Positions 9,295 to 38,317 are shown, counted from the stretch's first letter. The stretch: DNA of 64,000 bases from Spirochaetia bacterium (GCA_965208575.1 CBDBOV010000005.1:128001-192000), one strand, 5' to 3'. Translations and numbers: made by a program. Notes: generated from the letters alone by a model not told the origin.

Positions 9295-11040
9295 CTACGG
9301 CTTCAGGCTGCTGTCGAACCAGATGCGCCAGAAGACTGCTCTGGCCCATCCCATCGTGGACTCGCCGTTGAATCCCGCGACCCACGGCTGGACCACGTTG
9401 AACTGCGGCCCAATTGGCCCGAACAGCTGCCAGAACTGCTCGATCGAGTACATATCCAGCTCGCGGAGCGCTGCGTTTTGCTCGTCCAGCGTGGTCGCGC
9501 CAGCGGCCTCGTCGAACTTGGCCTGGTACCACTCGTCGTCGACATTGGAGGTGTTCCATCCTGCCGTCGGAAGGAATTTCCCCAGAATCTGGATTGCGGG
9601 GCACTTGCACGCCCCTTCCGCGGTGATGAGCTCATATTCTCGTGCGTTTCTTCTCGCCCCGTACTCAGCTCCCCCTCGCACCTCGGCCTCTACCTTGACG
9701 CCGATGGCGTCCCAGTAACTGATCAGGAGCTCTGTGTGGTTCAGGTCGAATCGCTCCTGGTGCAGAATCTCGGTCTTGAATCTGACGCCGTCGTCGCCGC
9801 GCGGATAGCCCGCCTCGTCGAGCAGCGCCTCGGCACCGGCCGGGTCATACTCGAATACCTTCCTGACATCTGCCGGCCAATCCTCGAACGGGACCGCGAC
9901 GGCCGCATTGAAGCGGCTGACCTGCCCCTGCGGGATGGTATCTGCAAAGCCCTTGTAGAATCCCTGGTCGATCTCCTCGAGGTTGATCGCCATCTGCAGC
10001 GCCTTGCGTACCCGGATATCGCCAAAGGGCTCCACCTGGGTGTTCGGGGCCACCGCATTGTCCGACCGCAGGCCATACGGAGACGGCACCAGCTCCGGGT
10101 TGGTCCGCTGCAGGCTCTCGAGCTGATCGATAGTCCGCAATTGGGTGAGCGTGAGCGCCCCCACGTAGTCGAGCTGGCCGGTGCGCAGCGCCGACAGGTA
10201 GGTCGCCGCTTCGGGCATGATCAGCCCGCGTAACTGGTCGAAATAGGGGAGGCGGTTGTCCGGAAACTTCTCGTCGAAGCCCCAGTAGTCGGGATTCTTG
10301 TCATAGGTGATTGAACTGCCCTTGGTCCAGTCGGTCAGGGAATAGGGTCCGGTGCCGACCAGATCCCGCCAGTCCTCGCCGTCCCCCTCTGCCCGGATGA
10401 CCTCGGGCGGGTAGATAAGGTTAATCGGCCCCTGGATGATCTTGGCAAGAACAGAGACGCTTGGCCTCGCCAGCTTGAACTCCACTGTCGAGTTGTCGGT
10501 GGCCGTTACCGACTCGACCTCGACGCCGGCCAAGAGATCGGATCCGTACAACCGCTCGGTGAAGCCGCTGCCGAGGCCCATCATCCGGTGGTAGTTGAAT
10601 TCGATGTCCGCGGCGGTCAGCGCGCGACCGTTCATCGGCGCCTTGTCATGCCAGCGAACGCCGTCGCGGATGTTGAGGATGATGGTGAGTGGGTCGGGTT
10701 GCGACCAGCTTTCAGCCAACGCCCCCGTCGTGTTCGCCGGCGCGACGAGCACGTTGAAGTCGAACTCATCTCTCGGCAGCGCCCAATCCGCGATGCTCAC
10801 CAGCTCCAGCACGTGACTGACTATCGTAACCGCTCCGAAGCTGTCGGTGCTGGCTGGCTCTTCCTTGAGTGCAAAGGTGAACGTGCCGCCGTACTCGGGC
10901 GCGCTGATCATCTCGCCGGTGGTGGGGTCGAGCACCATCTCCTTCTCGACCGCGGCCGCCTCCTCGCCGGCGGGGGCGGCAAACGTAACGGTAGCCACCA
11001 GCGCGAACACCAGCGGCAGCACCATGAGTCTGGGAGTCAT
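9295..11040 (-). CDS. ABC transporter substrate-binding protein, family 5 (OppA/DppA-like; copy 1)
   Basis: Signal-like N-terminus after GAGGAGG RBS; LAESW, VGTGPY, DIRVRKA, YDPAGAEALLDEAGY. Confidence 0.9.
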   Translation of the reverse strand: MTPRLMVLPLVFALVATVTFAAPAGEEAAAVEKEMVLDPTTGEMISAPEYGGTFTFALKEEPASTDSFGAVTIVSHVLELVSIADWALPRDEFDFNVLVAPANTTGALAESWSQPDPLTIILNIRDGVRWHDKAPMNGRALTAADIEFNYHRMMGLGSGFTERLYGSDLLAGVEVESVTATDNSTVEFKLARPSVSVLAKIIQGPINLIYPPEVIRAEGDGEDWRDLVGTGPYSLTDWTKGSSITYDKNPDYWGFDEKFPDNRLPYFDQLRGLIMPEAATYLSALRTGQLDYVGALTLTQLRTIDQLESLQRTNPELVPSPYGLRSDNAVAPNTQVEPFGDIRVRKALQMAINLEEIDQGFYKGFADTIPQGQVSRFNAAVAVPFEDWPADVRKVFEYDPAGAEALLDEAGYPRGDDGVRFKTEILHQERFDLNHTELLISYWDAIGVKVEAEVRGGAEYGARRNAREYELITAEGACKCPAIQILGKFLPTAGWNTSNVDDEWYQAKFDEAAGATTLDEQNAALRELDMYSIEQFWQLFGPIGPQFNVVQPWVAGFNGESTMGWARAVFWRIWFDSSLKP

Positions 11041-11324
11041 AACGTACTCCTCCTCGTTGTCGGGATCGGGACCGCGCCCCGTTGCCCGTGGTTCTCTTGG
11101 GCCGAAGACTTCGGCCTTCTCGCATGGTCGTGGTAGTGGTCGCACCCGAAGCGGGAGACAGCGCCGCGAGCGCCGGTTTCTCGGCGAGCGAGACGAGCGG
11201 TCAGTTACCGGGTGCTTGGTTTGTTTCGGAGCAGGACGGAGCAGGACGGAGCGCTTAGCGTGCGCGGCTAACGGGTGGCTGCGGTGGGCTGTGTGATCGC
11301 GCTTCATCCGCGTACCAAGCCGCC

Positions 11325-11352
11325 ATTCTACCACGCGCCCGGCACCCGTCAA
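11325..11352 (-). promoter_or_regulatory. Putative sigma70 promoter of opp operon copy 1
   Basis: Minus strand TTGACG-16 nt-TAGAAT with extended -10 TG; identical copy at 59057-59084. Confidence 0.5.
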
Positions 11353-11374
11353 GCACGCGGAATCTGTCGGCTGG

Positions 11375-11512
11375 AACGAGGCCAAGTCGCAATACCTGCC
11401 GCGCCTGCGCTCCGGTGCCGCCGCCGACGCCGGCGATCGGTCGCTGCAGAAGATGGCGCAGACGGTCACCCCGGAGGACCTGTTCGCGCCGGTGATCCTG
11501 GCCCTGGTCTGA
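11375..11512 (+). pseudogene. dhp-like gene 3' remnant
   Basis: Matches 59868-60105 with internal deletions. Confidence 0.8.
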
Positions 11513-11551
11513 GCGAGCAATCCGGGGCGAGACCCAATCAACCCGTTGGTA

Positions 11552-12007
11552 CTACGTCTCAGACGCTCGAAGCGGAGTCAACGCCCTATCTCCCACGATC
11601 AACCCGCGGCCAACCGCACGCAGGCCGGCCTCGACTTGGCCGATGTGCGAACGGTGACGCACGTCCAGCAGGCGGCGTACCGCAGACTGGCTTACCCCAA
11701 GCCGTCTTGCAAGCTCAACCTGGGTCACGTTCTGCCGCCGCATCGCCGTGTACAATGCGAGCTTGGCCGCCACAACCGACGGCACTGCTACCAACTCCTG
11801 GCCGGCGACGACATCACTCGGAACGGGGATCTCGCGGCGCCCATCCACGTAGAAGCTCAGCGCGACGGCGAGCGCATCCGTGGCCTTCTCAAGGGCTTGG
11901 GCTCGATCATCGCCACACGTCAACGCTTCGGGCACGTCGGGGAACGACACCGAGAAGCCTCCGTCGTCCAATTCCGGGGTCAGTACGCAGGGGTAGGTGT
12001 ACCGCAT
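11552..12007 (-). CDS. hicB: HicB-family antitoxin (copy 1)
   Basis: YP.VL...DGGFSVSFPDVPEALTCGD plus C-terminal HTH (TQVELARRLGVSQS). Confidence 0.9.
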   Translation of the reverse strand: MRYTYPCVLTPELDDGGFSVSFPDVPEALTCGDDRAQALEKATDALAVALSFYVDGRREIPVPSDVVAGQELVAVPSVVAAKLALYTAMRRQNVTQVELARRLGVSQSAVRRLLDVRHRSHIGQVEAGLRAVGRGLIVGDRALTPLRASET

Positions 12008-12058
12008 CAGAACTCCTCCTTGCTGATCCCGAGTTGTTTGAGCATGGCATGATAGGTT
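12007..12058 (-). pseudogene. hicA: HicA toxin 3' remnant
   Basis: TYHAMLKQLGISKEEF* identical to the end of 40131-40337. Confidence 0.85.
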
Positions 12059-12112
12059 TACAACCGTCAGCCAGGTGCTTGATCAGCGTCCGGGCGCGGG
12101 GGACAATCGGTC

Positions 12113-13054
12113 ATGAGCACGTTGAGATTCGGCTGGCATATGCCCTCGTTCCCGGTCGACGGCAGCAGCGGGCCCCGGTTCGTGGAGCAGGTTCGTGCTT
12201 CCCTGGACCGGCTGCATCCGCACTTCGAATCGGTCTGGGTCGACGACCACCTGTGGCCGTGGGCCAGTTGGCAGCCTGCCGACACGCCGTTCCTCGAGTG
12301 CGTCAGCACTATCGCCCACTTCGCCACCGTCTATCGCGACCTCACCTTCGGATCTTTCGTGTTCTGTCAGAGCTACCGCACCCCGGCCGTACTGGCGAAG
12401 ACGGCGGCCAACCTGCAGTTGCTGACCGGCGGCCGCTACGTGTTCGGCATCGGTGCCGGATGGGTCGAGCGCGAGTACCACGCCTATGACTACGAGTTCC
12501 CGAAGCCGGCCGTGCGCATCGCCCAACTGGACGAGGCCGTGCAGATCGTCAGAAGGCTCTGGACCGAAGCGCCCGCCACCTTCCACGGCACCTACTACCG
12601 GGTCACCGACGCCTACTGCGAGCCGCGGCCGGACCCCGCACCGCCACTGCTGATCGGCGGTGGCGGCGAACAACTGACCCTGCGGGTGGTGGCCAAGTAC
12701 GCCGACTGGTGGAACGTCACGGCGGGCACGCCCGAATCTTACGCCCACAAGCTCGAGGTGCTGCGCGGCCACTGCGCCGCGGTCGGACGCGACTACCACC
12801 GGATCGTCAAGACCTGGGCGGCGGAGGCACTTGCCGTGGCCGCCACCGAGAAGCAGGCGCGGCGCATCGCCGAGGCCTCGCCTCACAAGAGTGATCCGAT
12901 CGTCGGCACCCCGGAGCAGGTCGCCGAACGGGTGCAGGCCTACATCGATGCCGGCGTGCAGTACGTCATCGTGCGCGCCATCGACTTCCCGAGCACCGAG
13001 GGCATCGAGCTGTTCGCCCAGGAGGTGATACCGCGCCTGTCGCTCCCGCGCTGA
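12113..13054 (+). CDS. LLM-class flavin/F420-dependent oxidoreductase (copy 1)
   Basis: SVWVDDHL, YRTPAVLAK, GIGAGW..E, LLIGGGGE, ADWWN, GTPEQV. Confidence 0.9.
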   Translation: MSTLRFGWHMPSFPVDGSSGPRFVEQVRASLDRLHPHFESVWVDDHLWPWASWQPADTPFLECVSTIAHFATVYRDLTFGSFVFCQSYRTPAVLAKTAANLQLLTGGRYVFGIGAGWVEREYHAYDYEFPKPAVRIAQLDEAVQIVRRLWTEAPATFHGTYYRVTDAYCEPRPDPAPPLLIGGGGEQLTLRVVAKYADWWNVTAGTPESYAHKLEVLRGHCAAVGRDYHRIVKTWAAEALAVAATEKQARRIAEASPHKSDPIVGTPEQVAERVQAYIDAGVQYVIVRAIDFPSTEGIELFAQEVIPRLSLPR

Positions 13055-28564: not shown

Positions 28565-29326
28565 ATAACGTGTACTGATCACAGCTCGAACAGGACGCTG
28601 GTCTCGGCGTGATCCTTGGTGACGTAGGCCGATGCGTTGCGTCACAGGGGACCAGATGTGACCCTGTCCTGCGTCTTATCAAACGTCAGAGAGTCGATAC
28701 GACAGCCATCCCAATGGGCCAGCCCTGCCCGCGCGCCGTGATGCTCGAACATCCGTGACGGGCTATCCTCGAGCGCGTCCGAGGCGGACCCGAGGGCGGC
28801 CCGCACATTCCAGCCGCAGCCGCCGTGCGTGCGTATCTGACGTGGCGGCGAGCCGAATCAGGACGGAGCTGTGCGGGCGCCTCCATCCGCCGATACCCAC
28901 AGCCGGTGCGGCGGTGCACCTCCCGAAGTCCGACAGCGGTCGAGCTCCTGTTCGGCGTACCTGGCAGCAAGTCGACGCTCGCACGAGGCCGTTCTGCCCA
29001 AATGCTCCGCAGAACGGAAATGCAACGGGGACGGTGACACTGAGCGACGTGCGCTCTGTTTGACGTAAGCGCCGGACCTACCACACGATAGGCCTCATGA
29101 GAAAGTTTGACCAAACCGCAAGAGTAAGGGGCGGACGCCTACATGAAGGAAGAGCGGCGGCCCACACTCAGCGTATCGCGAAGGCAGAGGACGACGCCGC
29201 GGCCTCAAACGTTCAACGGGCCGCATCGACACTCAGTGCACCGGCGGTCGCCGTCGCTCGCCATTTCGCGGATGCCTCATCGCGTCTGTAAAGCCTCCGT
29301 GCCGTAGGCCCTACGGTGTCCCCAAG

Positions 29327-29962
29327 ATGAGCAACGATCCAAAAGCGCCGGAGATCACGATTGACGAGCTCACAAAAAGCGTCGACGAAATTGCTCAAAC
29401 CCAAAAGGCGAGCAAGAAAACGGAACGTCGGAGGTTCGTAGTCCTCGCGATAGCGCATCTTGTAGTTGCCGCATGCACGGCGTTCAGTCTCTATCTTCAC
29501 TACGACGAAAAGCGAAGGTTAGAATCCCAAATACAGAGGACGATGCGTACCGACTTGGAGCTCCAGATCCTACCATATAGCATAGTAAAGAGCCGCATGA
29601 ACGGTAACTCATTCGAATGGCGCGATGCCATCGTTGATCTTCCCGATCACCTCAACACGACAGAAAATGAGGCTGTCATCGTGGTTGTAAATCCTAGTGA
29701 CGTAAGCACAGGAGATGGATGCATCCGCGGTTCTCTGTGGGTTCCCCCAAAGCCGAAAATAACACTAGGCGATATGTTCAAAACTGAGATGGCGTTCTCA
29801 CCAAAGAGGGGCGAGGCTTATTTCACTGGGTATGTTTATGACAAAGACTTTAAGTCGGAGAATCTCCGGTTTCTTAAAGATTGCAAGAAAGAACAACCAC
29901 TCGTAAGGGTCAAGTTTATCCCATTCACACCACCAACAACCTCGAAGCCGAAAGAAGGGTAG
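29327..29962 (+). CDS. Hypothetical protein with one N-terminal TM helix
   Basis: FVVLAIAHLVVAACTAFSLYL; low GC; 6 bp upstream of the next ORF. Confidence 0.6.
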   Translation: MSNDPKAPEITIDELTKSVDEIAQTQKASKKTERRRFVVLAIAHLVVAACTAFSLYLHYDEKRRLESQIQRTMRTDLELQILPYSIVKSRMNGNSFEWRDAIVDLPDHLNTTENEAVIVVVNPSDVSTGDGCIRGSLWVPPKPKITLGDMFKTEMAFSPKRGEAYFTGYVYDKDFKSENLRFLKDCKKEQPLVRVKFIPFTPPTTSKPKEG

Positions 29963-29968
29963 TAGAAT

Positions 29969-31147
29969 ATGTCGATAAAGAGCGTATTATTGTACTTCAC
30001 AGTCGCCACCTGGATTACACACGCAGTCATCGCGGACGATCATCAGTTCCTTTACACACCGCACAACAGTGCGGCCGTCCAAGATGGCTTGATTGTATAC
30101 TACACACAACAGCGATCCGAGCAAATCGATAGGATAACTAGACATCCGATAGACGCTGACTTTTACCTAAAGCGCCTTACGGTTAGGAGTTTCCATCACT
30201 TGACCTCGGTCGACATTGTATCCGTGATTTATGATGTTGCTAACTTCTATGGGTCTGATCGGTTAAACGAACTTGGTATCACCCGGTTGAATATCCTCTG
30301 GGGGTCTCAACAGACATCGGACGGAGTCTTCAGCTATGATGGCGGCGTGGTCGTTGAACGCGAACTTCTTGATGCGATGTTGTCGAACACAGAGCAAGTT
30401 GCGCAGATTAGAGAGTTCGCGAATGGAATCAGACGTATCGTTCCGCCTGATAGCTTCGATCCGATAGATGATCAGTTCTCAGGGGCGAACGAGAAGCTTG
30501 GGACAATACATACACTGAATGAGGAAGATGAGGATTGGTTCAGTTATCGAATAGCTCAAGGAGGATATTATGCTGTAGAGACGTTACCGGTCGAAAGCAG
30601 GCAACGGGTAGACACAGTAGTGGAGGTTCGTACCGACGATCAGACAATTGTAGACGACGATGGGAGTGACGAGTTTCTATACTCTCGCGCGTTGATAGAG
30701 GTAGTTGACAACGCGGCGGTGGTAGTGAAGGTGACCAGCTACGGTACAGCTGGGGGGTACTACGTCCTCAGTATAAGCTCCGTACCGTTGGATGAGATTC
30801 TCATAGATCCGTACGAACCGAACGACACGATTGAAACAGCAAAAGATATAGTCTCGGGATCTGAGATCACGGCGATGCTGAATTCGAATGAAGATGTCGA
30901 TTGGTTTGAAGTCCAAGGCCTAAAGAGAGGACGGACGTACGAACTTCTCATTTTTTCCGACGACTATGATACGACGGCAACTCTCTTCGTGGGAGATCGC
31001 GCTGGGCCGTCGCTTGAATTCTCTGAATTTTCGCCATCAGGGAGGTTTCAACTCGAGTCGAAGGGGCGGATTTTTTTGATGGTGGTCGGGGGATGGAGCG
31101 GCGAGTACACGATCGTTATTCAGGAGGATGACCCGCCAAGACTGTGA
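29969..31147 (+). CDS. Secreted protein with two PPC-like (pre-peptidase C-terminal) domains
   Basis: Signal peptide; DEDWF..., DTVVEV...DDDG, DPYEPND...A..I, DVDWF. Confidence 0.65.
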   Translation: MSIKSVLLYFTVATWITHAVIADDHQFLYTPHNSAAVQDGLIVYYTQQRSEQIDRITRHPIDADFYLKRLTVRSFHHLTSVDIVSVIYDVANFYGSDRLNELGITRLNILWGSQQTSDGVFSYDGGVVVERELLDAMLSNTEQVAQIREFANGIRRIVPPDSFDPIDDQFSGANEKLGTIHTLNEEDEDWFSYRIAQGGYYAVETLPVESRQRVDTVVEVRTDDQTIVDDDGSDEFLYSRALIEVVDNAAVVVKVTSYGTAGGYYVLSISSVPLDEILIDPYEPNDTIETAKDIVSGSEITAMLNSNEDVDWFEVQGLKRGRTYELLIFSDDYDTTATLFVGDRAGPSLEFSEFSPSGRFQLESKGRIFLMVVGGWSGEYTIVIQEDDPPRL

Positions 31148-31564
31148 TACCGGATGCAAAACTGGAAGCCCATCATTCTATTCTATATGGACCGAAATAG
31201 TCCGTCTCGACGACGTCGAGACTGAGAGTAGCCAGACGTTCGAGGCTGTGGTGCCGTTAGAGTTAGAGGTTGCGGGGAGGTGCGCGCCCAGCATAGGTTG
31301 GGATTAGCTGTTACGGGCAGCTTTTGCACGTTCTACACGGTGGCTGAATCACCGCATCGTTGAGCTTAGTGGAGCGGCCGCGACGCCATCCGGCGTATCC
31401 TAACTAAACGGAGATTGCACCGCACAGCCAAGCGACTGACGACAACCTAGTGGCAGTTCCCGCGACGAACGCGAACACGCCATGCAGGTCAGCCAGATAC
31501 TTTTTCGCTGGCGCCCACCACCGCGGGGAGCGAGATCGAGGTAAGCAGTGACACGCGGCCCGGG

Positions 31565-31920
31565 CGTGGTGATGGAGGAATACTCCACCACCATGACATG
31601 CCACTAGGTCCCTCATATTTCCGGTGGGTTACCTAATAGCAGCTCGTCATACTCGATGTCTGTTACTTGACGTTTCATCAACTCTTGTCCTAGTGTGATG
31701 CCGAAGATTACTTTCCCATTCGAACGCTTCAGCCGCCACTTCGTTCTCGAGAACACCTGTCGTGAAGCGTCCCAACGATTCTCCGCTGCTTTGTTCGCCC
31801 CGGCAGGCGAGGCTCGTCGCTGTTGGTGAAGGAGCGGCAACGTGTTGGACCGGCGAAGTCCTGGCGCCGACGCTGCGCATCAACGGCAAGCCGTCCAACG
31901 TGGGCCGGGGCGTTATCTCA
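31565..31920 (+). pseudogene. Degenerate second copy of the integrase 5' region and its att-like leader
   Basis: Aligns with 19266-19665 (GTGAAGCGTCCCAA..., CGCATCAACGGCAAGCCGTCCAACGTGGGCC). Confidence 0.75.
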
Positions 31921-32229
31921 CCGGGACGCTGGCGGCGCAGACGGCCGACATAAGGTCGCGCCCGGTATCGGCTTGTCATCTCGTTCGGCCGCATGGCCAG
32001 CCGTATGTTGCTCTCCGTAACTGCCGCCGCGATCGCCTGGGCGTCAACAAATCCATCCTGCTGACCAGGTCGATGCCGTGCCCAACAGTTCGTGTAGTCC
32101 CACGGAACGAGCAGATCGAGGATCCATCGAACGCGTTGACCAAGCCGGTGATGATGTCGGGGAAGGGGGGCGGGATTTCGTACCCCGCCGGCCCAGGCTG
32201 ATCCTCGCAGATTACCGGTTGGCGCGAAT

Positions 32230-33001
32230 CCGCCACCGACGGGGCTTCCCGTGTTGCCGCTGTCGCACTCTTCACGCATGCCGCCGCCAATACCCCGGCG
32301 GAACCGATCGGTGCCCGCGTCGCTCGCTTCCCGACCGCTGTCAGCGTTCCCCGTATTAACGGCGGGTCGGCTTCCGCGTTACCGGTTTCGGCTGTCAGTG
32401 CCCGCGCTCTGGTGAGCGATTCGGGCCGATATTCCCGAATTGACGTAGTTCAACTTGCGAACCCCGACAACCACAGTGCGGGAGTCATCGACAGTCCACA
32501 GGAAGTTCAGCTACCGCCCTCGGGTGATGCGACATCGATCCGCAGCATCGTCGCTCTCATGCCGACGAGCCCGTCGGTCGCCCTGGGGTCCTTCTAGGAC
32601 CCCAGGGGGCGTACTGCGGGTGACCCGCGCTTTGCTCCTTCACCTACCCGAAGCGAAAGAGCATTGTCGGTCCTCTGTGAGCGTGGCTGACGCCGTCCAG
32701 CATGCATGAAGCGAACGCGGCTACCTCACTCAATTCGGGAATTACTACCGGACAGCGGGAATCATCGCCGACGAGATCGCGGCATTCCCATCTACCAGAA
32801 TGCGGGCGTCAACACCTGCTCGGCGTTCACTCACGTTGCGGCCTGCGTATTCGCTGAATCTCCCAACGGCGATCCTTCTTCATCGGAGTGCTTCAGTCCA
32901 ATTCGTTACCTCCTTGCACCGCTCCGACTGCTTCCGGCTGGAGCGACAGTTGCCGTGCGGGGTTCGCACCCGCTGGGTTACAGCGCCTTTCCACGGCGCA
33001 C
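32230..33001 (-). mobile_element. Group II intron 5' (domain I) remnant, interrupted
   Basis: Starts GTGCGCCGTGGAAAGGCGC at 33001; typical domain I blocks (GGCCGCAACGTGAGTGAACG, GGAAGCCGACCCG); no ORF. Confidence 0.65.
32393..32814. mobile_element. 422-bp MITE with TGT...ACA ends (IS21-like)
   Basis: TGTCAGTGCCCGCGCTCTGGT vs reverse-complement end TGTTGACGCCCGCATTCTGGT; splits contiguous intron sequence; no TSD seen. Confidence 0.55.
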
Positions 33002-33323
33002 GCCAATACACGGGTCACCGCTACGGGTGGTCCAGCGTCGCCTTCCTCGGCATGCACTTCCATCAGACGTACGCTTTCGCTTCTCCCCTTGGGTTCGTGG
33101 GTCGAGCGTGTACATGTGGTGGGCTTGCGTAGGTCCGTGCTTCATGTAAGATGTAGATAATCCGCTGTTGTAACTACACAGGAGGTCTCAATTGGGGACC
33201 TTAGTACCCCATACACTGGCATGGTACCCTCCTAACCTCGCTTGGTACCCAGTTAACCAAGGCACTGAGAAGGTAGATAGGTTTAGCAACCGAGATGTTT
33301 TTGCGAGTTTTACGGAGCTACCC

Positions 33324-33353
33324 TTGACACGGATTCACGATCTGTGCTATAAA
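33324..33353 (+). promoter_or_regulatory. Near-consensus sigma70 promoter
   Basis: TTGACA-18 nt-TATAAA with TG extension. Confidence 0.55.
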
Positions 33354-33714
33354 GACTCTACCCGGCTGAAAAAGGGGCAGCCGGCCATAACCGCAAGACG
33401 TTAACAATCCACCGCGTTAATACGGTGAGAAGAAGCGCCGAAGCATGCATTCTGCCCAAGGGGAAAAATTTCTCCAAACCACTCTAAAGGCCACTAACGG
33501 CCCACGTACTATTTAACTAACGTAACTAAGTACCTAAGCGATTTATCGCGGTTAGAATAAGACGCTCCCCGCAGCGTCAATAGACCGCGCCTTATCATTC
33601 AAACGTAATAGTACGTTTCAACAATCTACTCGTAATAGACAATTTAAGCAAGTAAGAGCCGGCGTCTGTTAGATTGCCGAAAATCATACTTACCAAATCG
33701 AGGAGGTGCTTCAA

Positions 33715-33798
33715 ATGAAAATCCTCTATATGGTTGGTTGGTTCGGAAACGACTGTATAGCCATCTACGCTATCGGTCTATCCCGATCCGCTATCTAA
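33715..33798 (+). CDS. 27-aa hydrophobic peptide MKILYMVGWFGNDCIAIYAIGLSRSAI
   Basis: AGGAGGTG RBS 6 nt upstream; followed by hairpin GCCCGAACCTC...GAGGTCGGGC. Confidence 0.4.
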   Translation: MKILYMVGWFGNDCIAIYAIGLSRSAI

Positions 33799-34139
33799 GA
33801 ACCTGAATTGACACGCCCGAACCTCTATGCGGGAATGAGGTCGGGCCTCTGTCGCCATCTTACATCTGCCGCCCAGCCCCGAACCACCTCCTCACCCTCT
33901 CCCACCAAGCCACCTTTTCGGGCTCAATAGCCCTCTGTAGCCCCCTTGTTTTCCGCGTTACTAAAGAGACCCTTAGCGACTTGCTCCATTCGCGCCATAG
34001 TCGGATGGGTTTCGCCCCCGTTACGATCTGCCATTTTGTACCTCACATTTGAGTGCCCACTTGGCCCTTTATGCAAAGACCCGGTGCGGGATCGACCTGA
34101 ACGGGTGGAGCGGACAACGTGATCTGCTCGCCGCGGAGA

Positions 34140-34498
34140 GCGAGCTACGCAGACGTTGGCATGACGACGTAAAGGATACGGGACGCTGGCTGGGACGAGT
34201 GTTGCGTGGATGGTTTGACTATTACGCGGTACCTACCAGCTTTCCCTACCTGCAACAATTCGTGTGGCGTCTGCGCAGAATCTGGATACGGGTCCTCCGC
34301 CGGAGGTCCGAGAAGGACCGCTTCTCCTGGAATTGGATGCTGGCGCTCAGTAACAGGCTGTGGCCCAAGCCCCGCATTGTACACCTATGGCGACTGCACG
34401 CTTTGCCGTCAACCACCGAAAGTAGGAGCCGTATGCGTTAACGCGCACGTACGGATCTGTGCGGGGGGCGCCGGGTAAACCGACGTTCCCGCCGCGAT
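34140..34498 (+). mobile_element. Group II intron 3' remnant (maturase end, domains V-VI)
   Basis: ELRRRWH...RGWFDYYAVPT...LRRRS; GAGCCGTATGCG...CGCACGTACGGATCTGTGCGGGGGG. Confidence 0.8.
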
Positions 34499-34709
34499 AC
34501 GTGGTCGCCAAGCGCGTTTTTTTTTGAAGCAGAGCGGGATGAGGTGGTCGTTGGACGGGGCCAAGGAAATGCTCCAGCTACGCGCCTCCGTGATGAGCCG
34601 TCGCTCCTGGGACGACTACGAACGCCTGCTCCCCTCATCGCCCACACCAGAATCCGACCAGACCCAGCTCGAGGCCGCCTGACCGCTACCACTTTGGCGA
34701 AATGGACCC
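34499..34709 (+). pseudogene. ISKra4-family transposase C-terminus and terminal IR
   Basis: LKQSGMRWSLDGAKEMLQLR...EAA*, then GCTACCACTTTGGCG..GGACCC, similar to the IR ending at 27541. Confidence 0.65.
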
Positions 34710-34725
34710 CCGTGCAAAGACCCTC

Positions 34726-34754
34726 TTGACACGGAAGGGGTAATGTGCTATACG
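34726..34754 (+). promoter_or_regulatory. Second, related sigma70 promoter
   Basis: CTTGACACGGA...TGTGCTATA shared with the 33324 promoter; 17-nt spacer. Confidence 0.45.
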
Positions 34755-35170
34755 GTATCCGCGCTTCACCAAAGCTCACGGTCGCAGTAGAGGGTACTGA
34801 CGTACAAAAAGGAATCTTTGCTTGCGTCAATCGACGCGCAAAGAAGGCAAGCGGTCTTAAAACAGCGGATCACCTAATGCAAGCTGGTACATTCATTTCC
34901 GATAATCTCGACAAGCTCAGGCGTGGAGATTTTTCGCTAAATACTATCGTTCTTTAACTCTTCGCAATTTTTCATCGACGTAATTAACAAAGAGTTTTTT
35001 CTGTCTTTGGTAATGATTACCCATTCTTGTGTCTCTCGCATTACGAACAACTGGCCACGATCTTGTTTGTCCGTTTGTTCTTCTTTGGTCGCTTTCACGT
35101 TGTACCTCCCTGTGATTACACTGAGCGGATTGAGATATACTTGATAAATAGCGTTCGTTTTGTTTAGAAC

Positions 35171-36040
35171 ATGACACCAAAAGAATACGAAGTCTTTGTT
35201 GCCACGCTTACTCAAGCCGTTGCGAAGTTACAAGACCTGACTACGAATTTCCACAGCGTGGAGATACGGAAGCTTCTTCAGACCAAGTATGGACTGAAGA
35301 GAGAATTCGACATCTACTGGGAATACGAAATTGATGGTGAGAACCACAAGGCCGTAATCGAATGTAAGAATTACAAACACCGAGTCTCAGTTGATCGTGT
35401 AGACGCACTGGTAGGAAAACTGACTGATTTTCCCGGTGTGCATCCGATCTTAGCAACAACAAGAGGATTTCAATCGGGCGCACAATCAGCCGCCGAGAGC
35501 CACGGTGTGGAGCTCCTGGTAGTCAGAGAACAGAATCTATCTGATTGGACTGCTAAGGACGGCAAAGCTCTAGTTCGGAATCTTGTAATTACGGTTGAGT
35601 GTCCACCGCCGGCGGAGATACACCATTTTCTCCCTGTTCTCGATGCGTCCTGGGTGGAACGAAATACCAACATAGACACCTCACAATCGATCAAGAAGAT
35701 GCTTTGGTCTCCAAACACCTTTATAGACAATGTTGAAGATGATGACCGGTATTCACTTCAAGAACTCAGCAGCAGACTTTCTGATAAGGATGCTGGAAGA
35801 CACACTGATAACGTAGTTTTCAAGGATGCTTACTTAGTCGATCCAGAGCTTGGACGACTGAAACTTCTAAATTTCACTGTGGAGTATTCTGCTTTTTTAC
35901 CGTTGTCATCACGAATGGAGATCGATTTCGGTGAGGCGCTTGTTGGAGTGATCGAGTATTTGCAAAAAGGAACAAAGAAACTGATATTCCACGATAAGGT
36001 GAATACGGGAGATATGTGGATTTGGAATCGTGCGATTTAG
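35171..36040 (+). CDS. Mrr-like restriction endonuclease
   Basis: YEVFV, REFDI, IECKNY, V..L..K..D, GFQSGA: Mrr_cat-type motif set. Confidence 0.8.
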   Translation: MTPKEYEVFVATLTQAVAKLQDLTTNFHSVEIRKLLQTKYGLKREFDIYWEYEIDGENHKAVIECKNYKHRVSVDRVDALVGKLTDFPGVHPILATTRGFQSGAQSAAESHGVELLVVREQNLSDWTAKDGKALVRNLVITVECPPPAEIHHFLPVLDASWVERNTNIDTSQSIKKMLWSPNTFIDNVEDDDRYSLQELSSRLSDKDAGRHTDNVVFKDAYLVDPELGRLKLLNFTVEYSAFLPLSSRMEIDFGEALVGVIEYLQKGTKKLIFHDKVNTGDMWIWNRAI

Positions 36041-36129
36041 ATACTTTGTAGAGTTCCAAGAATCCACCGGTCGCGTTTGAGAAGTGGTTAACAGGGTATT
36101 CATGGGTATTCAGCGTCCAATAAGGAAAC

Positions 36130-36705
36130 ATGATGAAGTCGATTACCGATCTATATGACGAATTCGTGGCACTATACGGATATTACTTGGAAGTCCGCGA
36201 GGCGGTCCGTAAGTGGCGCGATTTCTTAACAAATCATATGCAGTCTAGAGACAAACGCTTGTTTTTTGGATCGGGAGATCCTAATCACCCGAACTCCACC
36301 TATCAATATGTTAGAACTTTCGGGTGGTTAATTGATGCATCGGATGACAACGGCACAAACGTAAGCATACACAGAAGGAGTGTAATCGCGTTTTCCTATG
36401 CTCTTTGGGAAGATCAATATAGAGGGCGTATAGCTCATGAGTGCAAACGCGCAAACAAGAATGAAATACAGAGTGATGTATTCTACGATCTAAACAAATA
36501 TCGACAAGCTATTCTGCACTCCGGCGGGAGATTGACTGCTGACCCGAGAGTTATCCGATTCTTCAATCGGGGTGAAGAAGTGTTGCTTACGGACGATCAT
36601 ATGTATGAACTGTTTTCACTGCTTGTTGGCGAACTCAATAGGATTGGACGAGAATACTATCAGCCAGATCCTCAGTTTGCGCTAGACAGACCGCTAAACG
36701 GCTAA
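36130..36705 (+). CDS. Hypothetical protein, possible HEPN RNase
   Basis: Apparently helical; upstream E (ALWED) and R-x4-H motif RQAILH followed by SGG. Confidence 0.5.
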   Translation: MMKSITDLYDEFVALYGYYLEVREAVRKWRDFLTNHMQSRDKRLFFGSGDPNHPNSTYQYVRTFGWLIDASDDNGTNVSIHRRSVIAFSYALWEDQYRGRIAHECKRANKNEIQSDVFYDLNKYRQAILHSGGRLTADPRVIRFFNRGEEVLLTDDHMYELFSLLVGELNRIGREYYQPDPQFALDRPLNG

Positions 36706-36919
36706 GCTATTGTATTAGGAGGTACCAAGCGAGGTTAGGAGGGTACTATCCGAGGTTAGGAGGGTGCCTCTATGTTATTGGGGTACTAAGGTCCCTCAAT
36801 TGATGGGAGTGTTCCACCACCGTAAGACAACGGAACTCGGCACTGCCGTGTTCGTTTCGTGTAGGGCTCTATTGGCGCTCACCCTAGCGTTCAGCTCGCC
36901 AACCACTGAGGCCACGGAG

Positions 36920-38177
36920 TCCGACGGTAAGCCCGTGGAGTTGACCTTCACGTTCTGGGGATCGGCGTTCGAACGGGAGGCGGTCGAACTGATGGTCCAA
37001 GCATTCAACGACAACCATCCCGGCATCAAGGTGCGAGGCCAGCACATCCCGGACGCCTACCACGAGAAGATCAGCACCATGGTGGCCGGCGGCACGCCGC
37101 CGGACCTGGGCTACCTGAACGAGCAGCAGGCGTTTCTGTGGGCCGAGGAGGGCGTGATCCTGGATCTGACGCCGCACTTCCGGGCGGATCCGGAGGCCAG
37201 CAACCGGTTGGCGGCCTCCTACTACAACTACGACGACGGCACGCGCACCATCGGCACCAATACGGCCGCCGAGACCATGATCCTGTACTACAACAAGAAC
37301 CTGTTCGATGAGGCCGGGTTGGACTATCCGCCCTCCCCGGCTGCGGATGCGTGGACCTGGAGCGAGTTCGTGGCGGTGGCCAGGCAGCTCACGGTCGACC
37401 GCAGCGGCAACACTGCCGACAGCGATGCGGTTCGATCCGGAGAACATCGACGTGTTCGGCATTTCGTTCCCCACCTGGTGGGCCGGCTACCTGCCGATGA
37501 TCCACAGCAACGGCGGCCAGCTTGCCAGCGACGATGGCACCGAGCTGCCGCTCAACCAGCCGGCGGCGGTGGAGGCGCTGCAGGCGATCCAGGACCTGAT
37601 CTACGTCCATCACGTGGCCCCGACGCCGGCCCAGTCCGAGGCGCTGCCCTCCGCATCGGTCATGATGCAGTCCGGCGGCGATCAACGGGCACTTGGGCGA
37701 TCCTTGGACCACAGCCAGCTCGGATTCGACTGGGGCATCGGCGTGCTGCCCTACCACCAGGAGCCGGCCACGATCCTGCTGGGCTCGCCGACGGTGATCT
37801 ACGCGGCCACCGAGCACCCCGACGAAGCGTTCACGTTCTACAAGGTCCACAACGACCCGAGCAAGGTGGATCTGTACGCGAAGGGGCTGTGGATGCCGCT
37901 GCGGACTGGAGTACTACACCAACGCGTCCAAGACCGCCGAATGGCTCGACGCCATCCCCGGAGTCTATCCGCCGGAAGCGCGCGGGGTGCTGATCGACTA
38001 CACCATGAACCACACGACGCGGTAGCCGCCGGCGTACTGGGTGAAGAACGCCAACCAGATCTTGTCGGAGGCGATCAACCCGGCGATCAGCAAGCTGTGG
38101 ACCGGCGAGGTGACCGCCCAGGAGCCGATGGGCCAGGCGGTGCGCGATGGCGCGCCGCTCATGCAGGGACGCTGGTA
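36920..38177 (+). pseudogene. Sugar ABC transporter substrate-binding protein, multiply frameshifted
   Basis: FWGS, F...HP.I.V, PD, LYYNKNLFDEAG..YP, WTWSEF; split over three frames with an internal stop. Confidence 0.8.
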
Positions 38178-38317
38178 GCCGCCGGCGCGCAGCCCTGACG
38201 GCGCGCCGGCACGTCGGGTCACGGCCGGCCATGCGGCCGCGGCCCCCGGCGGTGCGCCGTATGGACATGGCCACGGCACCGAGTAGCCGGCCGCGGTTGC
38301 CGCGTACCCGCCCCGGA

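Follow-up and report, generated by a model that had tools for sequence, protein, structure and literature searches.

A 3.6-kb element with multi-unit inverted ends and nuclease-type cargo in a Spirochaetia genome, probably a stranded non-autonomous transposon

The window examined here is a stretch of 64,000 nucleotides from a Spirochaetia bacterium (GCA_965208575.1, CBDBOV010000005.1:128001-192000; positions are counted from its first letter), and it harbors a 3,601-bp element (33195-36795) that lies between perfect terminal inverted repeats, is flanked by a 7-bp direct repeat and carries genes for an Mrr-like nuclease and a HEPN-like protein. In our view the element is probably a DNA transposon of the mobile-insertion-cassette type, non-autonomous and now stranded, with predicted nucleases as cargo and a helper transposase that acted in trans.

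Perfect terminal repeats, iterated subterminal units and a 7-bp duplication

At its junctions (33188-33211 and 36779-36802) the element shows TCAATTG followed directly by GGGACCTTAGTACCCCA on the left, and TGGGGTACTAAGGTCCC followed directly by TCAATTG on the right. A repeat-pair search revealed that the terminal inverted repeats are 17 nt long and 100% complementary, and the terminal 17-mer, when up to three mismatches are allowed, occurs only twice in the window, both times at an element end, compared to 0.07 occurrences expected by chance; none of 100 shuffled sequences contained two or more matches. Further inward lies an exact inverted 26-mer (33224-33249 and 36721-36746; 26 nt, 100%), with an additional copy of the subterminal repeat at 36751-36768, and the subterminal 18-mer GGTACCCTCCTAACCTCG has three matches with 0, 1 and 1 mismatches versus 0.06 expected, a number that was reached in 0/100 shuffles. 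Because the shuffle controls gave 0/100, we conclude that the ends and the duplication are far beyond chance. A preliminary description of the window, made from its sequence alone, had proposed the perfect terminal repeats with their 7-bp duplication, the inverted 26-mer and the iterated subterminal sites, and all three are borne out by these searches.

Alignment of both ends revealed an 8-bp tip, GGGACCTT, at each, behind which stand units of 20-21 bp beginning with RG(T/C)ACC (three in the left end, four in the right end), and showed that the two ends are near-symmetrical over ~70 bp. The termini read GGGACC...GGTCCC, and we define the end motif of the element as GGGAMCTTAGTACC plus RGTACCCTCCTAACC units. 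The units are spaced two helical turns apart (21 bp) and are presumed to be transposase-binding sites. Base 33187 is also a C, and if it is counted into the direct repeat, the latter becomes 8 bp long and the inverted repeat one base shorter; the 8-bp palindrome TCAATTGA lies within the target. The coordinates of all features are given in Table 1.

Logan contigs assembled from four public runs, which stem from one sample that is probably the source of the genome and are not independent of it, span both junctions with 0 differences (for example, 32963-34451 and 34607-37400), and the structure is therefore not an artefact of a single assembly. In each of three of the four runs, one Logan contig differs at 33220-33222, in the left end, by one deleted and one inserted nucleotide, which suggests another copy or strain variation within the community.

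Table 1. Features of the element and of its insertion site (positions in the window)
Feature	Position	Strand	Basis
AGGAGG ribosome-binding site of the interrupted transporter gene, separated from its ATG	33180..33185	+	sequence
Left copy of the 7-bp target duplication, TCAATTG	33188..33194		sequence
Left terminal inverted repeat, GGGACCTTAGTACCCCA	33195..33211	+	repeat pair and shuffle control; homologous tip GGGAACTTAGTACCTTA in G001
Three subterminal units, L1 (33203), L2 (33223) and L3 (33244), 20-21 bp	33203..33264	+	end alignment; conserved in G001
Promoter-like motif 1, CTTGACACGGA-N12-TGTGCTATAAA (putative)	33323..33353	+	sequence
27-aa ORF behind GAGGAGG	33715..33798	+	ORF call; no family match
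Frameshifted small conserved gene (56 aa, intact in G001)	33869..34034	-	tblastn, two frames, 2-nt gap
5' piece of nested ISKra4-family insertion sequence (IS); left IS end missing	34049..34138	+	similarity from the transposase start codon
3' fragment of a group II intron: maturase C-terminus and domains V-VI; replaces IS 203-1331	34139..34498	+	Pfam GIIM, Rfam
3' piece of nested ISKra4-family IS with right inverted repeat, 211 bp	34499..34709	+	81.5% identity to IS 1332-1534
Promoter-like motif 2, CTTGACACGGA-N11-TGTGCTATACG, twin of motif 1 (putative)	34725..34754	+	sequence
53-aa ORF with GGGAGG site, divergent from the nuclease genes	34937..35098	-	ORF call
289-aa Mrr-like PD-(D/E)xK nuclease	35171..36040	+	Pfam Mrr_cat
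191-aa HEPN-like protein; stop codon abuts unit R4	36130..36705	+	motifs, model
Four subterminal units from 36787 (R1), 36768 (R2), 36747 (R3) and 36726 (R4), 19-21 bp	36706..36787	-	end alignment, repeat pairs
Right terminal inverted repeat	36779..36795	-	repeat pair and shuffle control
Right copy of the 7-bp target duplication, TCAATTG	36796..36802		sequence
Interrupted ABC-transporter solute-binding-protein gene, three frames	36803..38198	+	Pfam SBP_bac_1 1.4e-18; alignment with G009 orthologue

The element is single-copy foreign DNA inserted in front of a transporter gene

The genome of this bacterium is represented by a 95%-complete assembly (G000) of 6.5 Mb in 6 contigs with 67% GC. The cargo of the element has a GC content of 0.40-0.50, compared to 0.60-0.72 in the flanks and 0.67 in the genome, which agrees with the low-GC cargo of the preliminary description and marks the element as low-GC foreign DNA. 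It is present in a single copy: an end-pattern search of the genome returned two matches, both at the element's own ends, and short-word BLAST with both ends found only themselves and one another. A regular expression for three successive units gave 10 matches in the genome, two of them the element's own, versus 8 for the control, and the loose unit motif alone therefore carries no signal.

Excision of 33195-36802 in silico yields ACACAGGAGGTC-TCAATTG-ATGGGAGTG, that is, AGGAGG-N9-ATG, and the open reading frame (ORF) restored in this way has a signal-like N-terminus and an SBP_bac_1 domain. From this rebuilt target we conclude that the element parted a solute-binding-protein gene from its ribosome-binding site. 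The gene aligns to its orthologue in G009 in frames 2, 3 and 1, that is, with at least two frameshifts, and is either decaying or carries assembly indels; the Logan contigs verify the sequence only to 37400. Its first ~135 nt and the region upstream are unrelated to the orthologues in G009, G003 and G006.

A related left end in a congeneric genome

An end-only search detected the end of the element in two of 92 genomes of the order, this genome and the congeneric genome G001, and in one of 401 genomes of a phylum sample, namely this genome (the counts of 92 and of 401, as well as that of a class sample of 401 genomes, each include this genome). A BLAST search with the whole element against 61 genomes, this one and 60 relatives, had overlooked the end in G001, as it scored no more than 4 candidates per genome. 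Within 16 kb fetched around a weak internal match, G001 holds the left-end relative GGGAACTTAGTACCTTATACACTGGCATAGTACCCTCCTAACCCCCATTGGTACCCTGTTAACC, made up of the tip GGGAACTTAGTACCTTA and the same three units; over 64 nt it shares 87.5% identity with the left end (E 3e-17). The 7-mer outside this end is GATTTGC, not TCAATTG. On the inside, the end adjoins a gene for a 336-aa protein without Pfam match, followed by the intact 56-aa gene, a piece of which is shared with our element (77% identical over 137 nt; found in 2/92 order genomes); further inward come a transposase of the IS1380 family, which is split, and an ISKra4-family IS cut short at position 1314. Neither nuclease gene lies within the 16 kb read at this end, and no cognate transposase was seen at the locus. 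Since the right end was not found, the locus in G001 is a one-ended remnant. A second tip-like site in G001 (1928173) has no units and GC-rich surroundings, and we rejected it as a chance match.

In the region read in G001 (L088, G001:C1:3603000-3619000), the remnant adjoins two genes (10168-12761), one encoding a 531-aa methylase-like protein and one a 347-aa protein. The 531-aa protein resembles type I restriction-modification methylases and has an NPPF motif (read by eye). The surroundings of the remnant look like those of a defense island. At both loci (window position 34049 and L088:5263), an ISKra4-family IS stands in the same orientation just past the 5' end of the small conserved gene. 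An insertion inherited by both, a preferred target or a functional connection may each account for this shared placement.

A decayed interior that predates the last jump

The preliminary description listed a peptide ORF, an Mrr gene and a HEPN gene inside the element, all of which are present, but it overlooked ~900 bp occupied by a decayed small gene, an IS remnant and an intron end. Its view that the element has no transposase of its own is upheld: neither a transposase nor a recombinase was found among the 8 in-element ORFs searched against Pfam. Two of the eight pass or approach the cut-off, the Mrr_cat protein and the intron maturase remnant (the latter below cut-off), and a third has a weak Translat_reg match only (E 0.017, below cut-off). 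The sole transposase-like sequence in the element is a truncated IS of another family that retains its own right inverted repeat. Ten intact copies of this IS reside in the genome (1,534 bp, 99.9-100% mutually identical, ends GGGTGCATTC...), with a duplication of 9 bp in the copy whose flanks were read. A full copy matches NCBIfam NF033572 (ISKra4 family) with 230 bits versus a cut-off of 205, by which an ISLre2 label for the nested IS is overruled. The nested remnant is 81.5-90% identical to these ten copies and lacks the first ~98 IS bases. The intron fragment within it (360 bp) shares 82-85% identity with introns of G005 and G019, has ltrA-annotated plasmid matches and is recognized by Pfam GIIM (E 6e-4, below cut-off) and by RF00029 (34424-34498; 32.4 bits, below gathering). 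Because the intron fragment stands for IS positions 203-1331, we order the events as insertion of the IS, insertion of the intron into the IS and deletion. The ISKra4-family IS was itself considered as the helper and rejected, as its ends (GGGTGCATTC...) and 9-bp duplication differ from the ends (GGGACCTTAG...) and 7-bp duplication of the element.

The ~900-bp decayed mobile block (33869-34709) lies between two low-GC modules, where a transposase gene could have been. The element might then have been autonomous on arrival and have lost its transposase gene in place, via the IS, the intron and the deletion, with no mobilization in trans. Deletions did occur, as the left end of the IS and its positions 203-1331 are gone, and in the G001 relative, too, the equivalent place has received IS insertions. 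However, the 48 nt that make up the ends and the duplication contain no mismatch, whereas the nested IS remnant is ~18% diverged. The genome copies with which this remnant was compared are nearly identical to each other, the intron remnant is similarly distant from its relatives in other genomes, and such divergence, had it arisen in place, should have marked the 48 nt as well. The G001 relative likewise lacks a cognate transposase. We therefore consider loss of the transposase gene in place unlikely, although it is the alternative that survives best. Since the 48 nt are perfect next to a remnant ~18% diverged, the decayed DNA predates the last jump; this jump took place after the transposase had been lost, or in an element that never had one, from which we infer mobilization in trans. 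The claim of the preliminary description that the element moved recently thus applies in relative terms only: the ends and the duplication are perfect, but the transporter gene is already in three frames.

Conservative site-specific recombination by a tyrosine recombinase or an Xer-type enzyme is the next alternative, with TCAATTG as crossover core, the tips as core-type sites and the units as arm-type sites. A 7-bp repeat would suit tyrosine recombinases, whose overlaps are usually of this length, the iterated sites near the ends are reminiscent of arm-type sites, and the target contains a palindrome. Yet the element has no recombinase gene, the G001 end abuts GATTTGC, the target beyond the core matches the tips at only 3/10 and 2/10 positions (read by eye), and near-symmetry of the ends over ~70 bp is a transposon-like property. 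We regard this alternative as improbable. The different cargo and the different flanking 7-mer at G001 fit transposition with a 7-bp staggered cut, not fixed-core recombination, and support the view that the ends form a rare family with variable cargo that moves by transposition rather than by site-specific recombination.

The family of the frameshifted protein comprises 10 metagenome clusters (P0127-P0136) and has no Pfam match, and the 27-aa ORF is preceded by an ORF-poor leader of 359 nt (fold z -2.5). A scan for consensus promoters returned 3 sites versus 3.6 expected, and because the twin motif of Table 1 is not among them, its promoter role is conjectural.

The cargo encodes an Mrr-like nuclease and a HEPN-like protein

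The 289-aa protein matches Pfam Mrr_cat (4e-9, 37 bits versus a cut-off of 21) and contains the D47...E64-x-K66 motif, in which D47, E64 and also C65 are invariant and K66 is found in at least 90% of 37 aligned sequences; the Mrr-like call of the preliminary description is correct. The best Foldseek match of the structural model (pLDDT 85) is 1y88 (E 1.4e-5 over 111 columns), followed by matches over ~110 residues to MspJI, EndoMS, Can2 and Card1, and no fold match was obtained for the beta-rich C-terminal half (160 residues). The protein thus resembles Mrr and type IV restriction proteins in its Mrr_cat domain with D...ExK and in its fold matches (AF1548, MspJI, Can2, Card1). Classic Mrr has an N-terminal winged helix and a C-terminal nuclease domain; the element protein, unlike it, has an N-terminal nuclease domain and the beta-rich C-terminal half. 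Besides the window's own, 76 homologs are scattered over many metagenome contigs, the closest being P0051, P0052 and P0053 (95, 86 and 84% identical), and full-length homologs of 40-41% identity reside on Vibrio and Salinivibrio plasmids without flanking inverted repeats.

Restriction-endonuclease-fold proteins act in transposition, as exemplified by TnsA of Tn7, and the element could in principle be autonomous if a cargo protein, such as the Mrr-like protein with its C-terminal domain, were an unrecognized transposase that binds the units. The 160 C-terminal residues without assigned fold and the lack of any other mobility gene would be compatible with this, but the plasmid homologs have no flanking inverted repeats, the G001 end has neither nuclease gene within 16 kb, and the homologs are widely scattered, all of which makes this possibility very improbable.

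The 191-aa protein has 49 homologs, none with a Pfam domain, and itself gave no match in Pfam, NCBIfam, PADLOC or PDB sequences; its closest metagenome relatives are P0001 and P0002 (88 and 84% identical). Its Rx4H motif, R125-Q-A-I-L-H130, is invariant in 38 sequences, as is R98, and E94 is present in at least 90% of them (Ex3R). In the model (pLDDT 95), Rx4H stands at the end of the helix 116-129. HEPN proteins are recognized by Rx4-6H at a helix end with a polar residue after R, and by the acidic residue of an upstream Ex3[KR] (PMC3710099). Both features of the HEPN superfamily, Rx4-6H and Ex3[KR], are found in the 191-aa protein. The best VIA-align rows are HEPN proteins, led by 5yep_B (Z 9.4, rmsd 3.7, 116 aligned), a score in the range that any helical bundle may reach (Z below ~13), and followed by 1ylm_B (8.1), 7ae2_A (7.6), 2hsb_A (7.1) and 1jog_A (6.9). 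On the strength of the motifs and of these fold matches we retain the HEPN-like call of the preliminary description. Like HEPN toxins (HEPN-MNT pairs and Abi-type RNases), the protein has Rx4H at a helix end, an upstream Ex3R, an all-helical fold and HEPN proteins as top matches; unlike them, it has no MNT partner, has an extra beta hairpin and has an Mrr-like neighbor. A defense or toxin role of the cargo is a plausible conjecture.

The divergent 53-aa ORF belongs to no family in PADLOC, NCBIfam or Pfam. No relatives of either nuclease-type cargo protein were found in viral contigs. One relative of the HEPN-like protein, in a Nitrospira metagenome-assembled genome (contig L043, 6487-12227), lies among integrase fragments, the remains of a transposase and two genes, for products of 392 aa and 735 aa. 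Outside the element, the window has a second low-GC pocket (29000-31200; 0.47-0.52) with ORFs of 211 aa (29327-29962) and 392 aa (29969-31147). Directly left of the insertion, the flank (31200-33150) contains a degenerate group II intron without ORFs on the minus strand (~32300-32975; RF02003 at 32831-32975, 74 bits), with an RF02005 fragment at 32295-32391; this intron is not a high-copy repeat in the genome, and the depth over it in the metagenome runs is very high. Elsewhere the genome is crowded with young repeats, including a 3,795-bp family with 22 full copies (for example, C1:409000-412800), a 1,985-bp family with 10 full copies and families of 1.4-1.7 kb with 9-12 copies.

Observations that weigh against mobilization in trans and against a nuclease module

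Several results count against the interpretation of the element as a helper-dependent transposon with a two-nuclease cargo. With respect to the helper, none was found in the 95%-complete assembly, in the 92 genomes of the order or in the 401 of the phylum sample, nor does a similar end or unit array exist anywhere else in the genome. A quick inventory of the abundant repeat families revealed duplications of 5, 5, 3 or 0-2 bp (the 5-bp duplication of the 3.8-kb family being present in 20/22 full copies) and of 9 bp for the ISKra4-family IS, and none of the genome's abundant IS or repeat families has a 7-bp duplication or similar tips. An autonomous member was not found in the 92 order, 401 phylum-sample and 401 class-sample genomes searched. 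The exact tip had 0 matches in genome contigs and one match each in a metagenome contig and a viral contig; as neither has a partner repeat within 6 kb or the unit motif, we rejected them as chance matches. The right end was not found in G001, and the 7-bp duplication is consequently documented exactly once. The search for an empty site found none: the four runs contain no joint across the element, and the 5' region of the orthologous transporter gene in G009, G003 and G006 is not alignable. Of the further copies and empty sites that the preliminary description asked for, one partial copy, in G001, has thus come to light, but neither an autonomous partner nor an empty site.

Other searches were silent or uninformative. 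The tandem-unit pattern had 0 matches in viral contigs, BLAST with the left end found nothing among plasmids, and in a comparison of the whole element with plasmids (148 records) and phages (1 record) only the intron fragment matched. When up to three mismatches were allowed, the tip matched in 266/401 class genomes; the reversed-pattern control matched as often or more, which renders this search uninformative, and the unit motif was present at 0/30 of the fetched class-genome loci with a mismatched tip.

With respect to the cargo, Z 9.4 is, by VIA-align's own note, within the chance range of helical bundles, and the HEPN match is absent from Foldseek (E <=0.001) and from sequence profiles. 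PADLOC matched 0/4 element proteins at E <=1. The two nuclease-type genes are not neighbors at the five loci of more distant relatives that were read: no Mrr-like neighbor exists at the 3/3 loci of HEPN-like relatives examined (Nitrospira, Chloroflexota and Dehalococcoidia assemblies), none of which has element-type ends either, and no HEPN-like neighbor exists at the two plasmid loci of Mrr-like relatives examined, where both flanking ORFs were profile-compared for Salinivibrio and the annotation alone served as the basis for Vibrio.

Discussion

Taking these observations together, we still regard a stranded cassette mobilized in trans as the probable explanation. In this scheme, a transposase encoded elsewhere, perhaps with DDE-type chemistry, would bind the three left and four right units of 20-21 bp, cleave at the GGG...CCC tips and join these to a target cut with a 7-bp stagger, and repair of the stagger would generate the TCAATTG duplication. 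The insertion between ribosome-binding site and ATG would silence the solute-binding-protein gene. The element encodes a PD-(D/E)xK Mrr-like DNA nuclease and a HEPN-type protein that is predicted to be a metal-independent RNase, which most likely make up a defense- or toxin-type module. It also contains the frameshifted small gene and what is left of an ISKra4-family IS that took up a group II intron before most of it was deleted.

The closest known counterparts are mobile insertion cassettes, described as passenger genes between IS-type inverted repeats, without a transposase and activated by a cognate transposase (PMC4337579). Like MIC231 from Bacillus cereus and the TnXax1-derived cassettes from Xanthomonas, our element has inverted repeats, no transposase and a target duplication. 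Unlike them, it has a 7-bp duplication and arrays of iterated units at its ends, and whereas the repeats of the known cassettes match an identified IS or Tn3-family transposase source, no IS supplying matching inverted repeats was found in the genome, the order, the phylum sample or the public collections searched. The assertion of the preliminary description that the ends cannot be assigned to a family therefore holds for the collections searched. Tn3-family elements have ~38-bp inverted repeats starting GGGG; a Tn3-derived cassette is hard to reconcile with the 17-bp repeat starting GGGA and the 7-bp duplication of our element. For the Tn3 family a duplication of 5 bp has been described (PMC4337579).

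Regarding the architecture of its ends, the element is reminiscent of transposons with multi-site ends, that is, Tn7, Mu, Tn402 and Tn552: it has a tip, followed by units of ~20-22 bp in unequal numbers (3 and 4). Transposons of the Tn7/Mu type have TG...CA termini and a 5-bp duplication, and Tn552 makes one of 6-7 bp. The element differs from Tn7- and Mu-like transposons in its GGG...CCC termini, its 7-bp duplication, its size of only 3.6 kb and the absence of TnsB/MuA-type or target-selection genes. Its tips, unlike those of the known transposons with multi-site ends, are not TG...CA, and the enzyme may be of another class, which also counts against the scheme above. Tn7-like elements often carry defense cargo (PMC8649781), as our element may do.

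Finally, chance similarity or an assembly artefact, which the single copy and the origin of all four runs in one sample might have favored, is already refuted by the shuffle controls (0/100), by Logan contigs that span the junctions with 0 differences and by the homologous end in G001.

Multi-site ends, tips other than TG/CA, a 7-bp duplication and small interchangeable cargo in a high-GC lineage would together characterize an undescribed family, a proposal that we put forward tentatively and hold to be possible rather than probable. If it were correct, cargo might be exchanged as modules, with the nuclease pair here and a pair of the small-protein and 336-aa genes in G001, a notion that is equally tentative.

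By itself, the element amounts to a single copy, decayed and immobile, whose insertion put a transporter gene out of action, as commonly happens in transposition. The pair of Mrr-like and HEPN-like genes constitutes a candidate two-nuclease defense or toxin module that is absent from current defense catalogues. If the ends do belong to a new transposon family, the element and the G001 remnant would serve as handles for finding its transposase, and the family would carry small, swappable nuclease-type cargo modules in a lineage crowded with mobile DNA.

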